Sequence record: OR791690.1
Origin: Escherichia phage vB_EcoM_JL1
Reading direction: 5' to 3' (one strand)
DNA: 55,571 nt
Part shown: piece by piece, positions 22,388-44,157 of the stretch
Layout: every line of letters begins with the position of its first letter
How positions within the stretch are numbered: position 1 is the first letter of the stretch
The notes under the pieces: model-generated
Databases searched by the model: none
What the model was told of the DNA's origin: nothing
The model's input: only the letters and a program-made list of their open reading frames with translations
Program-made: the position numbers and the translations under genes

Positions 22388-23428
22388 TCAGATGCCGGAG
22401 TTGATGGAGATTGCTGCCGGATACATCGCTTGGAAGCCAGCGAAACGACCACGGCCAGGAACTTCATAAACCAGGCCATGAAGCTGTACCGGTTGCCAGG
22501 TCAGCGGCAGAGGTTCACGCAGACGGAAAGTGCGGTTGCCCATTGCATTGCGGCAAACAACAACGAAGCAATCGGAACCAGCGTCGCCGTGACCTTTGAT
22601 TGCGTTCAGACCCTTGATTTTATCGCGGGAGTTAATGAACTGGTTGTTGTCAATGAAGAACTGACCAATCGTCTTGTCAGACTGCTCAGAACGTGCAGTG
22701 TTGAAGATGTACTGCTCATGCTCAACAGGCATCCAGATTTCATCCGGGCGCATGATTTTCAGAGTAGAGGCATACATTGCAGACACAGCAGTGGTCAGGT
22801 CGGCAATAACTTCGGTCGGAGTCTTCTCAGCCCACTTGGTAGAACCACCAGCACCAGCAGCAACAGTTGCTTTGGTAATGTCTGGGTTTTCGAAGAAGCC
22901 AACAAAGCCGTTAGCTTTATCGCCGTACCATGCAGCAGAGTTAACATACTGTTCGTAACCACGAATAGCAGCATTTGCTTTACGGGTTTCCAGCGGTAGG
23001 CCAGTAACAGCAGCAGACGCTACTTCGTCAATATCGTAGTCGAATGCAGTACCAACTGATTTAACAGGGATGCTGTATTCTTTACCAGAAATGCTGGACT
23101 TCGGCAGGTCGGTTGCACGGGCGTTAATTACCTGGGCTTTACCAACATGGTTGTAAGAACGGTAGGTCAGAGTGTTTACGCCAGCACCACCAGTAGTGTC
23201 CACACCGAAAGCAGCACGAGCTTCCAGTTCTGGATACAGAGTGTCGTAAGTTTGAGCTTCAATGTACTCAAGCTGGCGTTGAAAGAATACTGCATCGTCG
23301 TCATTCAGGACAACAGTGCCAGAATCCTGAATACGGGTGATAGCGTCGTTCAGTTCGAATTCAGAACCGTCCGCCAGTTTAATCATCTTAGGCATGTAAA
23401 TTAATCCGTTTTGTTTGGTGAGGCGCAA
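22388..23428 (-). CDS. Major capsid protein (putative)
   Basis: 346 aa; position after protease/scaffold and decoration genes. Confidence 0.5.
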   Translation of the reverse strand: MRLTKQNGLIYMPKMIKLADGSEFELNDAITRIQDSGTVVLNDDDAVFFQRQLEYIEAQTYDTLYPELEARAAFGVDTTGGAGVNTLTYRSYNHVGKAQVINARATDLPKSSISGKEYSIPVKSVGTAFDYDIDEVASAAVTGLPLETRKANAAIRGYEQYVNSAAWYGDKANGFVGFFENPDITKATVAAGAGGSTKWAEKTPTEVIADLTTAVSAMYASTLKIMRPDEIWMPVEHEQYIFNTARSEQSDKTIGQFFIDNNQFINSRDKIKGLNAIKGHGDAGSDCFVVVCRNAMGNRTFRLREPLPLTWQPVQLHGLVYEVPGRGRFAGFQAMYPAAISINSGI

Positions 23429-23450
23429 CTATTAATTGCGCCATCACAAC

Positions 23451-24038
23451 TTAAGACTTCGGCGTAATAGCAATTTCTTTAGTTGCAGTCACGCTGGAGG
23501 TTGTTTTGTTTGTTGCCTTAATCGTGGCAGAGGTATCAGTGGTCGTCTCATTCAGAACAGTTACAGTACCATTTGCAGCCACAGAAACGCCAGTCACAGG
23601 AGGTGTAACAGTGTAGGCATAATCTGTTGCTGTAGAATTACCAAACTTGAACAGCTTGTCTACAGTTACAGTGGCATCAGCAGAAGACGCATCAGCCGTT
23701 ACAACTCCAGCTACAGCAGACACCGTAGGTGCAGGAGGTTTAGGCTTAATCGTAATCACTTTAGATGCAGTTACACCAGGCTCTGTTTTATTCGTTGCCT
23801 TGATTGTCGCAGAAGTGGCTGTAGTCGTTGCACTTAGTACAGTCACAGTGCCGTTTGCCGCCACAGAAACACCAGCTACAGCAGGAGTAACGGCGAAGTT
23901 GTAATCTGTTGCTGTAGAGTTCTCAAACGTAAACAGTTTGTCTACAGTTACAGTGGCATCAGATGCAGATGCGTCCGCAGTTACAGTACCTGCTACAGCA
24001 GACACCGCAGGAGCTGGAGGTGGCGTTACGGCTTTGGG
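23451..24038 (-). CDS. -1 frame C-terminal extension with two Ig-like (Big_2-type) repeats, reached by programmed frameshift
   Basis: -1 frame open from slippery site 24032..24038 to TAA at 23451; encodes tandem ~90-aa repeats (SAVAGTVTADASASDATVTVDKLF...). Confidence 0.55.
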   Translation of the reverse strand, partial: PKAVTPPPAPAVSAVAGTVTADASASDATVTVDKLFTFENSTATDYNFAVTPAVAGVSVAANGTVTVLSATTTATSATIKATNKTEPGVTASKVITIKPKPPAPTVSAVAGVVTADASSADATVTVDKLFKFGNSTATDYAYTVTPPVTGVSVAANGTVTVLNETTTDTSATIKATNKTTSSVTATKEIAITPKS

Positions 24039-24499
24039 ACTACGTTAATCATGACCGGAACAACATCACCAGCAGCAGCCGGATAACGCAGGGCAGTCAG
24101 GTTGGTTGCCTTAGTATAGCCAGCACCAACGCCACCGAACTGACCAGTGGCAGATACGCCAATGTCTTTATCGGTGATTGCAGTTACAAGTTTAACCATG
24201 ATTGGGCCAGACAGCATGACGCCCAGAGGCCAGCCAACTTTAATAGCAACAGTACCGTCACCAGGACGAGTAGCAGATTCGATGTTAATCTGGCGCATGG
24301 TAATGCCCAGAACAGTGCCATCAGATTCAATACCAGGTTTAACCTGATTAGAAGCCGTGCCTTGAACAACAGCCAGACCAAAGTTTGCCATTTCTTCTTC
24401 GGCAACGTAGGTCAGGCGCTGGGAGTTGGTGGTAGCCAGGCCGTATTGTTCACCTGCATATGCTTCACCAGTATTAATAGACCAATCTTGCTTTGGCAT
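24026..24499 (-). CDS. Head protein (157 aa), 0-frame product of a frameshifting gene (decoration/auxiliary capsid protein)
   Basis: between scaffold/protease and major capsid gene; ends ...VVPKP with slippery C_CCA_AAG just before TAA. Confidence 0.55.
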   Translation of the reverse strand: MPKQDWSINTGEAYAGEQYGLATTNSQRLTYVAEEEMANFGLAVVQGTASNQVKPGIESDGTVLGITMRQINIESATRPGDGTVAIKVGWPLGVMLSGPIMVKLVTAITDKDIGVSATGQFGGVGAGYTKATNLTALRYPAAAGDVVPVMINVVPKP

Positions 24500-24508
24500 T
24501 GTCTTACC

Positions 24509-25528
24509 TTATAAAGAGTTGAAGCGTTCTAAACGACGTTTGTTAGCTTCTTCGGAAATAGAAACTTTAGGTTTACGAGCTTCTGAATCTTTCTTAGCAG
24601 CGAATTGCATAGACTGATTCAGGGCATCTCCCAAAGTAATGGAATCGCAATCTTCAAGAGCTGCATCGAAACGGGCGGAGATATAGTCTTCGCTCTTATC
24701 GCTGAAATCCTTGTCATGCAATTTATTAACTACAGCCAACTTAATTTCTGCATCGGTCTTGCCGGAGAAATCGAGGTTGGAGAACTCGTCGCCAAGACGT
24801 GCCACATCAACAAGCAGCGCTGTACGAGCAACTACACGTTTGTCTACCTCAGCCTGAATGGCTTCATCGGATAGTCGTGCAGTTTCTGCATCAGCAAGTT
24901 TCTGCTCAAGGACACTAATCTTGTCAAGCGCTGCATCACGCTCTGCTTCAACAACATCAAAGGTTGCCTTATCAACAATGGCAATCTCCTCACCAGAGTC
25001 ACCAATGCGAGTAGTCTGAGCACGACCACGAACAACAATTGCAGCATGGTTAGGGATAATGCGAACTTTATCGAAGTCAGCTTCATCATCTTCTGATACA
25101 GCCAGTTCAGCATTATGGCCCAAGGAGATTTGGTCAACACCAGAATCAACTAATCGAATAGCTTGCTCGTCATTCAAAACGATTGATGCAGCCAAGAAAG
25201 AACCGTCTGCAACTGGACGCCCTTCGATGAACCCTTTCTGGAGTTCTTTGTTGTTCTTGATGTTAACATCATTTTTCGGATGGCCGATAGTAACCGGAAT
25301 TGAACGACAACCTTCGATGGTTGCTTCGTCAAATAATACTTCCGGCTTGGTACGAACACGGCAAATAGATTCTGGGTCCAGATGTTTTGCAATTTCACCA
25401 AGTTCTTTCGCCTTGTACAGCATGATGCCAGTACGAGCGATGGTGCATTCTGCAATCATTTCGCCAGAGTCACGTAAACGACGGGTCGTTAAAGTAGCCT
25501 TGTCGTTCAACAAAACTACTTCATTCAC
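24509..25528 (-). CDS. Prohead protease / scaffolding protein (putative fusion); start uncertain
   Basis: ORF open to 25750 but overlaps portal by ~200 nt; candidate starts GTG 25528 or ATG 25459; acidic coiled-coil C-terminal half. Confidence 0.45.
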   Translation of the reverse strand: MNEVVLLNDKATLTTRRLRDSGEMIAECTIARTGIMLYKAKELGEIAKHLDPESICRVRTKPEVLFDEATIEGCRSIPVTIGHPKNDVNIKNNKELQKGFIEGRPVADGSFLAASIVLNDEQAIRLVDSGVDQISLGHNAELAVSEDDEADFDKVRIIPNHAAIVVRGRAQTTRIGDSGEEIAIVDKATFDVVEAERDAALDKISVLEQKLADAETARLSDEAIQAEVDKRVVARTALLVDVARLGDEFSNLDFSGKTDAEIKLAVVNKLHDKDFSDKSEDYISARFDAALEDCDSITLGDALNQSMQFAAKKDSEARKPKVSISEEANKRRLERFNSL

Positions 25529-25541
25529 GGTATCTTCGTCG

Positions 25542-26858
25542 TTAAGCTGAACCAGGTTTTGGTTTTGCTTCACTTGCGTTACCCTTTTGGATGTTAGGAG
25601 GATTAGGATTTGGTTTGCCAAGGTCACAAGTTCCGAACACGCCCGAATGGAACATGACTTCGTTTGCAACTTCGGTAGTGATAGTACCGTTGTTAACCAG
25701 CAGGTCAACAGCAAATGCCAAATCTTTAGCTCGCTTCGCTTTCTCAACATTGGATTCAGGGAAGATGTCTAACCATTCGTAGTTATATTCTTCAATGCCA
25801 AAGTGCGCTTGGACAATCTTGTCTACCACATCTAAACGAGGGTCGAACACAGAAGTCTGCAAGCCAGTCAACAAGTCGATATAGTTTACGAGGTCAGATT
25901 CGCCCGTAGCATTCATACCGTCTGGAGATGCAGAAAGGAAACGTGTAGCCGGAATACCAACTGCGGCAGCAACTATCTTCAAATATTCCCAAATCAAATC
26001 TTTCACACCAGACAGTGCAATTGATTTGGTGTCATACTTCTCAGTATTGTCGAGAATTAAGACGTTATAAATACTCTTTGCCAGCTTCATGAGTTTGAAG
26101 CGCTTCATCACAGCAGCTTCACCTTCCGGTGATGTAAGCAGAGATTGTAAGCCTTCAACAGTTACCACATCAATGGTGGCTTCTTGGGCAAGGCTGGCAG
26201 CAGCAGCAGCAGTTGTATAGAATTGGTCAATCGTTTTCAACAGTGGAATAAGTACCGAATCAGAATACCACATGTTACGTTGGAATTCGAACAGTGGCAG
26301 TTCAGTACCCTCGAACCGAAGGAAACGAGTGTAATGGATATAGCCGGGATACCCAGCCAAAGTGTAATACTCTGGCAAACCATAGTGAGGACTCAAAGGG
26401 TCCAGAACCATAGTCCCTGCGGCAAATAAGCGTGAGCGGTCAATAACTCTCATGGATTTAATACATCCAGTCTTCAAGTTATCCAGTCGCAATGGTGTAT
26501 CAAGTTTACCCGTACCTTTTAGGTCGAGCAGAACAAATGAAGTCCCATACAATCTGGCCCATTGATATGCCTCACGGAACAGCTTACGAATACGAAGTTT
26601 CTTATCCGCTTTGCGTCCCTCTTCGGTATCAATATGTCGCCACTTACGCGTCATATCTTGAGGAATAACGGTGCACACTTTCTGTGCCACCCAATCCTCA
26701 CGGAAGCGGTTCATAAGTTCGCGATAGTTCGCGTTCTTGTTTGAGAAAGTCCACTGGTTGAAAGTAGACTTATCTGCCTGGCCGCCCAACCCCGTTACAA
26801 GGTTTTCTAACCCATCTGCAACTTTAACAGAAAGATTGTTTTTCTTCTTGGAAGTCAT
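25542..26858 (-). CDS. Portal protein (putative)
   Basis: 438 aa directly downstream of terminase region. Confidence 0.5.
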   Translation of the reverse strand: MTSKKKNNLSVKVADGLENLVTGLGGQADKSTFNQWTFSNKNANYRELMNRFREDWVAQKVCTVIPQDMTRKWRHIDTEEGRKADKKLRIRKLFREAYQWARLYGTSFVLLDLKGTGKLDTPLRLDNLKTGCIKSMRVIDRSRLFAAGTMVLDPLSPHYGLPEYYTLAGYPGYIHYTRFLRFEGTELPLFEFQRNMWYSDSVLIPLLKTIDQFYTTAAAAASLAQEATIDVVTVEGLQSLLTSPEGEAAVMKRFKLMKLAKSIYNVLILDNTEKYDTKSIALSGVKDLIWEYLKIVAAAVGIPATRFLSASPDGMNATGESDLVNYIDLLTGLQTSVFDPRLDVVDKIVQAHFGIEEYNYEWLDIFPESNVEKAKRAKDLAFAVDLLVNNGTITTEVANEVMFHSGVFGTCDLGKPNPNPPNIQKGNASEAKPKPGSA

Positions 26859-42998: not shown

Positions 42999-43325
42999 TT
43001 AGTGGCCTTGTAGGATACGTTTGTTCGCAGTTTCTGCGTCGATTCCCAAATCAACTAATGTCACCAAGCACTGCGAAATCCGCTCTTGCGCAGCTTTCTC
43101 CAGAATTTGGTATTTTTCGTTGTCAACGCCTAACACATTCTTGGCATGAATGAGTGTAGCCATCAGACCGTGCCCCAAAGCAACAGCTTGCATTGCCTGG
43201 AGTTCAAAGTTAATTGTGATGCCAGCGAGTTCGTGCTCTTTCTGGATAATCTCAATCAACTCTTCTTTAGATTTGTCCTGTAAGTTCAAAATGGAACTCC
43301 GTAAATCGGTTGGTTTGTTGTCCAA
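42999..43325 (-). CDS. Hypothetical protein
   Basis: 108 aa. Confidence 0.45.
   Translation of the reverse strand: MDNKPTDLRSSILNLQDKSKEELIEIIQKEHELAGITINFELQAMQAVALGHGLMATLIHAKNVLGVDNEKYQILEKAAQERISQCLVTLVDLGIDAETANKRILQGH
43045..43062 (-). promoter_or_regulatory. Phage-promoter-like motif (copy P6, inside upstream ORF)
   Basis: plus cccaaatcaactaatgtc. Confidence 0.3.
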
Positions 43326-43606
43326 TTGCGAGTTGCGATTTGCATGGACTTGTTTGGGCCGCAGTAGAAATATTTCTTAACTTCGGCAAGGGTGTAGTTG
43401 GCACTGCTTTCAAGCAACTCCTTAAAGGTGTGCTTCCAGAATCCATCTTTCTCCGACAAACTTACGTGGAAAGAATTGGTGCCGTTATAGTACCAACGCC
43501 CACCAACGAGAACGAAGTGGATTGTTTCTTCCTCTCCTTCCCCACTCGACGGAAACATTAGTACATTTCTCAACGTCAAAACTTTAGCAGAATGCTTGCG
43601 AATCAT
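43286..43606 (-). CDS. Hypothetical protein
   Basis: 106 aa; GGAGAG RBS. Confidence 0.45.
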   Translation of the reverse strand: MIRKHSAKVLTLRNVLMFPSSGEGEEETIHFVLVGGRWYYNGTNSFHVSLSEKDGFWKHTFKELLESSANYTLAEVKKYFYCGPNKSMQIATRNWTTNQPIYGVPF

Positions 43607-44157
43607 AGGAACTCTCCAATTTTCGATTCAGTGTTTGTGACTTCTCTTCTCATCTTTTGGCCCAGGAACAGGCCACAGGGTAGCGCAGGAAGGCCGAAAA
43701 TCGGGCCACTGCCTACCGTTTGTGTCAATTCTGGATAACTGCATTGGCGAAGGGTTACTCCCGTTAGGGTGCGATACGCTAATCACATGAGTGTCGTCGC
43801 CTTGCGGCTCAGGCGTGTCACAGAGGCTTTGCAACCCTTCCCAATACATTCACCCAATCCACCCGCTTTGGCATAGCTGGTGGCGCGGTTTTGTGCGGAT
43901 TATGCCACTCTAAGCCCTGTTTGTCCGACTTCCTCAGAGCACCAGCAGCTTGTGGCACAAACCTATTTTCGAATGACTAACATAAGCATGAGGCATAACC
44001 CTCTAATTATTCAGCCCTAACAGCTTGCTTATTTAGTTCCAATTCATCCCAATACATCGCCTATAACAAGTGAATAGCTTTCTGTGGATAAGTATTCCGG
44101 CCCTTTGGCCTATGTTAAAAGATAAATGTATATGATGGAAACATTCCATCGAAAAGA

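Follow-up and report, generated by a model that had tools for sequence, protein, structure and literature searches.

The stretch of DNA analyzed here (hereafter, the window) consists of 55,571 nucleotides (nt) of Escherichia phage vB_EcoM_JL1 (OR791690.1), a phiEcoM-GJ1-like phage of the genus Carltongylesvirus, subfamily Cleopatravirinae, family Chaseviridae. On its minus strand, an open reading frame (ORF) of 157 amino acids (aa), assigned by profile matching to the capsid cement (decoration) proteins, overlaps at its 3′ end with a −1-frame ORF encoding two tandem repeats predicted to fold as immunoglobulin (Ig)-like domains, and a slippery heptamer, C_CCA_AAG, is found in the overlap (Table 1). 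An earlier reading of the sequence (the original prediction) had proposed that a programmed −1 frameshift at this heptamer appends the Ig-like domains to a head protein. The present analysis supports that proposal: a −1 programmed ribosomal frameshift very likely operates at the 3′ end of the Carltongylesvirus cement gene and gives a minority Ig-bearing fusion. This call is a strong one because the in-phase site, its conservation, the absence of an independent start and the constraint on the −1 frame all agree.

Table 1. Coordinates of the cement gene, the frameshift locus and the neighboring genes in the window
Feature	Position	Strand	Remarks
Putative cement (decoration) protein gene	24499..24026	minus	Pfam Phage_cement PF22758
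Slippery heptamer C_CCA_AAG	24038..24032	minus	X_XXY_YYZ phase; one codon ahead of 0-frame stop
0-frame stop TAA	24028..24026	minus	one codon past heptamer
−1-frame TAA	24047..24045	minus	closes −1 frame 6 nt upstream of heptamer
−1-frame extension	24032..23451	minus	193 codons and TAA (23453..23451)
Predicted trans-frame product	join(24499..24032, 24032..23451)	minus	349 aa (156 + 193), 35.2 kDa
Pro-rich linker (AVTPPPAP) and predicted Ig-like repeat 1	23739..24032	minus	98 aa; PHROG 13745
Linker (PPAP) and predicted Ig-like repeat 2	23454..23738	minus	95 aa; AlphaFold2 and Foldseek
Tandem 282-nt (94-aa) duplication	23740..24021 and 23458..23739	minus	77% nt and 78% aa identity between copies
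Candidate hairpin	24010..23993	minus	6 bp, 6-nt loop; starts 21 nt past heptamer
Major capsid protein gene	22388..23395	minus	Pfam Major_capside PF09950, E 1e-48; starts 55 nt after extension stop
DUF2213 gene, directly upstream of cement gene	24509..25573	minus	Pfam DUF2213, E 1.1e-30; start from relatives' 1065-nt annotation
Portal gene	26858..25542	minus	Pfam Phage_portal_3

The Cement Gene and the Overlapping −1 Frame

The head protein of the original prediction can now be named more specifically. Pfam Phage_cement matches the 157-aa product with an E-value of 1.2e-16 and 61.6 bits (cutoff, 27), and the alignment is full length, with residues 4–152 placed on profile positions 4–146 of 146. 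The same protein matches PHROG 563, a “virion structural protein” of the head and packaging category, and there is a weak, marginal profile match (E 0.056) to chain G, “Cement,” of the phage Pam3 structure in PDB entry 8hdt. On the strength of these matches, the ORF is taken to encode a capsid cement/decoration protein.

The ORF ends with ...AAC GTA GTC CCA AAG CCG TAA, from which the heptamer, its slippery pattern and its place one codon before the stop, all given in the original prediction, are read directly. The TAA that closes the −1 frame just upstream confines any frame change to an overlap of 16 nt (counted from the 0-frame stop, the −1 ORF opens at −16), and the heptamer lies inside this overlap. 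From there the −1 frame stays open for 197 codons, where about 198 down to position 23,451 had been predicted, while the 0 and +1 frames are riddled with stops across the same stretch. The short 0-frame form has 157 aa and 16.3 kDa. A tandem −1 slip reads ...NVVPK-AVTPPPAPAVSAVAG..., in which the residues after the slip are those given beforehand and the junction follows K156, a trypsin cut site; the computed fusion is slightly shorter than the product of about 354 aa expected in the original prediction. Stop-codon readthrough was considered as another route past the end of the gene and was rejected, since the 0 frame meets a TAG 10 codons on.

The heptamer alone is unremarkable: CCCAAAG occurs 7 times in the whole window against 7.0 expected. 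The non-random features are its phase and its placement in the 16-nt overlap, a −1 frame open for 197 codons and, most of all, the conservation of the site. When all ORFs of at least 80 codons in the window were scanned, four were found to have an in-phase heptamer with a long −1 continuation, and among these only the cement ORF has an efficient Escherichia coli motif, near the stop and in a short overlap. One of the scanned candidates is a minus-strand ORF of 113 codons at 43286..43627, in which C_CCA_AAC lies in phase 70 nt before the stop and the −1 continuation is 95 codons long; this is probably a chance occurrence, because the motif is a poor one in E. coli and the overlap is long.

Conservation of the Slip Site

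A cement homologue is present in 108 phage records. The corresponding junction was gathered from 22 GenBank/RefSeq records and eight distinct metagenomic viral contigs. The comparison set consists of 22 distinct phages that belong to Cleopatravirinae or cluster with them (17 isolates and five metagenomic contigs); the named hosts of its records are Escherichia, Yersinia, Pectobacterium, Erwinia and Aeromonas, and the identity of the cement protein to that of the window is as low as 58%. In-phase CCCAAAG is present in 20 of these 22 phages. The codon preceding the CCA is GTC, GGC, ATC, CTC, GCC or TCC, encoding V, G, I, L, A or S, and its wobble base is invariably C; CCA and AAG are unchanged in all CCCAAAG carriers. 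For comparison, CCA accounts for 29% of Pro codons and AAG for 46% of Lys codons in the head genes of the window, where a third-position C is found in 25% of codons. The two remaining cases are a metagenomic locus (L035) with the equivalent C_CCA_AAA, and Proteus phage Myduc (L021; MN098326.1, around position 2264), whose cement gene has no canonical heptamer and ends with TTT CAG GCA AAG TAA (G_GCA_AAG). The 0-frame stop is 0 or 1 codon past the heptamer in every CCCAAA[G/A] phage, and directly follows it in Y2, Fifi451, Mauresque and Farigoule. In most phages the −1 ORF has about 100 codons (103 typically), corresponding to one domain, and it has 197 codons, corresponding to two, in the window, DE15 and flopper. 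SA91KD probably has two domains as well, because it matches the window over the full 1401 bases.

The pattern of conserved bases also bears on the kind of recoding. Instead of tandem slippage, the lone A-site tRNA-Lys could slip on A_AAG with the aid of the stop codon (the “shifty stop”), or RNA polymerase could slip, either of which would be a variant of the frameshift reading rather than a genuine competitor to it. Myduc, lacking the full heptamer, nevertheless retains a 111-aa −1 extension, which overlaps the start of the capsid gene by 8 nt, and may use single-tRNA A_AAG slippage beside its stop; the four phages with the stop directly after the heptamer also suit such a mechanism, and A_AAG is the best tetramer in E. 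coli (PMC4066793). The three C's are strictly kept all the same, including the wobble base of an otherwise variable codon, which argues that the P-site tRNA re-pairs too. Transcriptional slippage was rejected because it needs longer runs than three C or three A. We therefore hold these other forms of recoding to be quite improbable and tandem slippage at C_CCA_AAG the form to be preferred.

The extension is absent from the five members of Nefertitivirinae examined (Spp001, SppYZU05, pAh6-C, pAh6.2TG and VPs20; for SppYZU05, which is L042, from the match table only) and from the metagenomic loci L036, L043 and L044. Another metagenomic contig, L040 (IMGVR_UViG_3300036796_000019), encodes a cement protein of 40% identity with an in-phase G_GGA_AAA five codons before the stop and a 109-aa −1 extension, for which sub-threshold similarity to He_PIG/PKD was obtained. 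The combination of a cement protein with a frameshifted Ig-like extension may reach beyond Cleopatravirinae.

A record of “Staphylococcus phage Pel53” (PP952070.1; host, Staphylococcus hyicus) has 88% DNA identity to this phage group and 92% identity in the cement protein; it probably reflects a misassigned host or a contaminant.

Start Signals and Coding Constraint in the −1 Frame

The extension of the window contains no ATG and no GTG or TTG led by a Shine-Dalgarno sequence; among the relatives only Myduc has an ATG, at codon 79. GTG and TTG codons that might serve as starts vary in position from phage to phage, and none of those in the N-terminal half of the extension is preceded by a Shine-Dalgarno motif. 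The earliest such codon is number 32 in PM1, 56 in 4HA13, 58 in phiA050 and 73 of 97 in Aioli. The GTG at 24,005 in the window (extension codon 10) is GTA (in ACA GTA) in flopper, ST32, GJ1 and others. Pairwise differences among the extensions, sorted by codon position in the −1 frame, amount to 2439, 1822 and 5777 at the first, second and third positions, respectively. The corresponding numbers for the 12 codons directly after the slip are 84, 84 and 486; nearly all candidate starts coincide with the end of this segment or lie downstream of it. By this substitution pattern, the −1 ORF is judged to be under purifying selection from its first post-slip codon, and the third-position bias in the first 12 codons, taken with the lack of a usable start, argues that the linker is translated in the −1 frame from the heptamer on.

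These data also bear on the possibility that the Ig ORF has a start of its own and is expressed as an independent gene, namely from the GTG at 24,005 in the window and from the annotated start of the 184-aa ORF in DE15 or the ORF in BSBP01, giving a free Ig protein of about 18 kDa that binds the capsid or acts elsewhere. Separate ORFs of this kind are indeed annotated in GenBank records (DE15, BSBP01, Y2 gp67, ST32 gp56 and flopper gp48), and the window does offer a GTG near the beginning of the extension. The annotated starts disagree with each other, however, with 70, 90, 143 or 184 aa given for the same domain; the GTG is not conserved; and the first possible start in PM1, 4HA13, phiA050 and Aioli is within the domain. 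Furthermore, the nine codons upstream of the GTG share the third-position substitution pattern, the −1 frame opens at or before the heptamer in every case, and a free Ig domain would be without the capsid-binding part. A start and a ribosome-binding site belonging to the downstream ORF itself had been named with the original prediction as the finding that would speak against it; no conserved start and no Shine-Dalgarno sequence were found, and a separate gene is accordingly considered very unlikely.

Predicted Ig-Like Nature of the Extension

The extension of the window consists of two copies of a 94-aa unit, each led by a Pro-containing linker. The underlying 282-nt repeat was missed by Tandem Repeats Finder and detected by a direct repeat search. 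Most relatives have one copy: a megablast query with the window splits in two on them, and the two pieces span 1119 bases rather than 1401.

PHROG 13745, “Ig domain containing protein,” matches the extension with an E-value of 5.9e-11. In Pfam, the extensions of relatives obtain only sub-threshold matches to GldM_3rd or Big_2. A search with the extension profile against PDB sequences returned only a spurious match to uL11, and a word-index homology search gave two matches swamped by low-complexity words. Among 1.84 billion representative proteins scanned in full with HMMER, there were only eight relatives of the window-type domain. Several of these are long tandem-array proteins (P0003, P0005, P0008 and P0010), with at least 22 matched stretches in the 5070-aa P0003 and four in a 510-aa protein, and the arrays are not seen as Big domains by Pfam; in P0008, the window-type domain adjoins a Pfam Big_2 domain.

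The structure of repeat 2 was predicted by AlphaFold2 from a 15-row alignment of domain instances as an all-beta fold with high confidence: the mean predicted local distance difference test (pLDDT) score is 95.8 and the predicted template-modeling (pTM) score 0.85. A prediction without an alignment had a pLDDT of 47 and was unusable. The top Foldseek matches of the model in the PDB are the tail-tube protein pb6 of phage T5, the phi29 capsid protein, Rib, invasin, SraP, GldM and cadherins; the parts matched in pb6 and the phi29 capsid protein are their Ig-like domains. Among viral models, the top matches include proteins named “Bacterial Ig-like domain” in phages SGF2 and NJ01, the large capsid proteins of phages Paul and 7-11, and both BIG2-domain and major tail proteins. 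Foldseek gives a probability of 1.00 to the matches with T5 pb6, with the phi29 capsid protein, with invasin and with BIG2-domain proteins of phages. Assignment of the repeats as Ig-like domains is supported by this confident predicted structure, by PHROG 13745 and by a Pfam-positive Ig_2 domain at the same position in a sister phage. Of the two tandem Ig-like repeats of about 90 aa in the original prediction, the tandem arrangement and a predicted Ig-like fold were thus recovered, and a Pfam Ig match was not.

Exchange of Ig-Like Modules Behind a Fixed Site

Judging from pairwise identities, the phylogeny of the extension does not track that of the cement gene. For example, Y2 and Farigoule are 94% identical in the cement protein and 22% in the extension, and Aioli and Fifi451 94% and 31%, while the window and Y2 are 58% identical in the cement protein and 72% in the extension. 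The extension of locus L030 passes the Pfam threshold for Ig_2 (28.2 vs. 27 bits), with Ig_3 and I-set below threshold, and the extensions of Farigoule and L032 are 65% identical to it. That of Myduc has weak Ig_3 and ig matches. At least four cargo types can be distinguished: the window type, the Fifi451 type, the Ig_2/I-set type and the Myduc type, the last with sub-threshold Ig similarity only. From these comparisons, the heptamer and the nearby stop, usually along with the Pro-rich linker, stay put while the Ig module behind them is swapped or duplicated. In the Yersinia phage PYps3T (L013; MW147599.1, 2261..2420), the heptamer and the stop are intact, and an internal deletion that removes most of the Ig domain leaves a −1 ORF of 50 aa.

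The arrangement could alternatively be a decaying remnant: a cement-Ig fusion that was once in frame, was disrupted by a 1-nt insertion or deletion (or by an error in sequencing) and has ceased to be expressed. The truncated extension of PYps3T and the lack of any extension in Nefertitivirinae would fit such decay. The same frame arrangement, on the other hand, recurs in over 20 phages that were sequenced independently and represent at least five genera recognized by the International Committee on Taxonomy of Viruses, the −1 ORF is open and under purifying selection, intact Ig modules of differing types have been swapped in behind the same site, and an in-frame fusion of the two parts is found in none of the genomes examined. 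A remnant is for these reasons extremely improbable, and an expressed, frameshifted extension is preferred.

Proposed Mechanism and Efficiency of the Frameshift

According to the proposed mechanism, most ribosomes would read GTC CCA AAG CCG, meet the stop and release the 157-aa cement protein. A minority would slip one base back at the heptamer, where tRNA-Pro on CCA and tRNA-Lys on AAG would re-pair with CCC and AAA, and translation in the −1 frame would run through the Pro-rich linker and the two Ig-like domains to give the 349-aa, 35-kDa fusion. The fusion would keep the entire cement fold and could therefore co-assemble with the short form, providing a few flexible Ig-like arms per capsid. 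Pam3, a myophage with a genome of 54.5 kb, has a T=7 capsid with 140 cement trimers on three-fold and quasi-three-fold axes, and its cement protein gp6 has a beta-tulip N-terminal domain (PMC9942802). By analogy, the cement protein of the present phage would form trimers at the corresponding axes of a T=7 capsid, in about 420 copies. The fusion is expected to be a minor product that is incorporated into the virion: at 0.5 to 4% slippage, about 420 cement copies would include roughly 2 to 17 fusions in each capsid. On the model of T4 Hoc and other Ig-like domains of phages, the arms may make weak contacts with carbohydrates on cell surfaces or in mucus.

No −1 heptamer measured in E. coli is more efficient than C_CCA_AAG, which reaches 54% with the IS3 pseudoknot and only a few-fold over a background of about 0.05% without a stimulator (PMC4066793; PMC5009743). 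Since no strong stimulator is seen, the slippage efficiency here is probably between under 1% and a few per cent. The near-constant stop codon adjacent to the heptamer may contribute a pause. This would be the “shifty stop” idea of Weiss et al. (1987), a paper listed in PMC5009743. Folds of 50 nt calculated phage by phage are unusually stable in four of 16 loci, namely the window (weakly), GJ1, MLP1 and L034. The candidate hairpin of Table 1 is kept within Carltongylesvirus, with 96.7% of cells paired and one covarying pair (A-U / G-U / C-G), and is absent in other genera. The prediction of downstream RNA structure, a check suggested with the original prediction, has yielded a candidate 6-bp hairpin at the level of the genus and no structure common to the family.

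Several observations weigh against the frameshift or its importance. RNAalifold finds no common downstream pairs and no family-wide structure among 11 phages, and the 102-nt downstream fold of the window is ordinary (z = −0.8). The hairpin is a possible but weak stimulator and lies farther downstream than the 5–9 nt expected of one. Upstream, no Shine-Dalgarno-like stimulator is evident in the flanks, as judged by eye and not by a scan. Given that the heptamer without a stimulator yields well under 1% in reporters, the fusion could be very rare. The PYps3T variant suggests that growth, at least in the laboratory, does not require the Ig module. Neither the whole extension of the window nor its single repeats have a Pfam match above the gathering score, and no proteomic, ribosome profiling or reporter data on a trans-frame protein in this phage family were found in the searchable literature. 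It should be added that not every known −1 frameshift site has a stimulator.

A more comprehensive view can be put forward only tentatively. The C_CCA_AAG heptamer, the stop 0–1 codon downstream and, usually, the Pro-rich linker may form a fixed recoding “socket” for horizontally exchanged Ig cassettes, with slippage proceeding without a classical stimulator and the stop serving as the pause, so that the number of arms would be set by translation and their specificity by swapping. If so, the site would be a natural and portable system for low-copy display on capsids.

Comparison with Known Systems

Ig-like C-terminal extensions made by frameshifting are established in phage T3 gene 10 and in Lactobacillus phage A2, and Listeria phages A118, A500 and PSA have been grouped with them (PMC5009743). 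In T3 gene 10 (10A/10B), like here, a capsid gene undergoes −1 frameshifting close to its end, which produces a minor C-terminally extended protein, and the extension is Ig-like (PMC5009743). The carrier in T3 is the major capsid protein itself, whereas it is a separate cement protein here; moreover, Chaseviridae are unrelated to T3, the extension of the window has two tandem domains, and its stop is one codon after the site. The T3 site is the same heptamer, C_CCA_AAG. In A2, A118, A500 and PSA as well, a structural protein is extended by a −1 or +1 frameshift, and short and long forms are made from one gene (PMC5009743). These phages have Gram-positive hosts, and their carriers are major head and major tail proteins instead of a cement protein. 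A2 uses C_CCA_AAA with a downstream stem-loop, to which no comparable conserved counterpart is found here. Phage lambda G/GT resembles the present case in having a V_VVA_AAG-type heptamer (G_GGA_AAG) near the end of a structural-module gene, and its frameshift reaches a few per cent with no RNA stimulator being obvious. The GT product is an assembly chaperone that stays outside the virion and has no Ig domain, in contrast to the Ig-bearing cement protein proposed here.

Among decoration proteins, T4 Hoc and T5 pb10 display Ig-like domains outward, are dispensable and have been proposed to act in glycan adhesion. Their Ig domains are in frame and present on every copy, whereas here only a frameshifted minority would carry them. 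E217 gp24 and Pam3 gp6 belong to the same family (PF22758) as the 0-frame product, and the available part of the Pam3 report mentions no frameshifted extension or Ig-like appendage (PMC9942802).

According to the model of Fraser et al. (2006), as outlined in a later account, promiscuous Ig-like domains move between phages and become attached to their structural proteins, in some cases out of frame, whereupon frameshifting allows their expression (PMC5009743). The domain swapping seen here fits this model. The present case differs in that the site and the linker are fixed and conserved throughout the subfamily and the cargo is exchanged, rather than a chance frameshift accompanying each insertion.

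Annotation and Significance

Ribosomal slippage is marked at this locus in none of the 22 GenBank/RefSeq records inspected, which include DE15 (OP595144.1), flopper (NC_048845.1) and ST32 (NC_047830.1), and no description of a frameshift in phiEcoM-GJ1, Chaseviridae or Carltongylesvirus is found in the searchable literature. The records either leave a gap (about 330–350 bp in GJ1 [NC_010106.1], PM1, phiA050, Fifi451 and Aioli) or call ORFs of 45 to 184 aa with internal starts as “hypothetical” or “Ig” proteins; in PO103-1 (ON778463.1), the cement gene itself is unannotated. A single joined coding sequence would correct the annotation throughout the subfamily, including phages studied for therapy or biocontrol of E. 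coli, Erwinia amylovora, Pectobacterium and Yersinia. Although extension by an Ig domain through frameshifting is itself already known, a different carrier, the cement protein, in a family without such annotation and a conserved recoding site with exchangeable cargo are new here.

Ig-like arms on the capsid are candidates for adherence to mucus or cell surfaces. The number of domains, one or two, and their type differ between near-identical phages, and this could affect their behavior in the gut or on plants. For studies of recoding, the phages form a natural series for the best E. coli heptamer without a classical stimulator, in which the same heptamer is combined with a stop at +0 or +1 codon and with the presence or absence of the hairpin. 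The conserved slip site and linker also suggest a ready-made means for low-copy display of foreign domains on the capsid.

Neighboring Genes

In this region, the closest match to the window is vB_EcoM_DE15, at 96.9%. The cement gene lies between the portal and DUF2213 genes on one side and the major capsid protein gene on the other. The DUF2213 product is labeled head maturation protease in the RefSeq records of flopper, ST32 and GJ1 and is prohead protease/scaffold-like. As a mechanically called ORF, the gene extends over 24509..25750 on the minus strand, encodes 413 aa and shares about 200 nt with the portal gene; in relatives it is annotated as 354 aa, for which the start would be 25,573 in the window, and in PYps3T as 413 aa.

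No tRNA or tmRNA gene and no Rfam family at the gathering threshold is found in the 55.6-kb window, and a promoter and terminator scan called none between the cement gene and the capsid gene. The 55-nt spacer ahead of the capsid gene contains a perfect 7-bp inverted repeat, GGCGCAA-TTAATAG-TTGCGCC (23422..23442, minus strand), which has no T-run and was not called as a terminator. This repeat could serve RNA processing or RNA stability upstream of the capsid gene, which is highly expressed.

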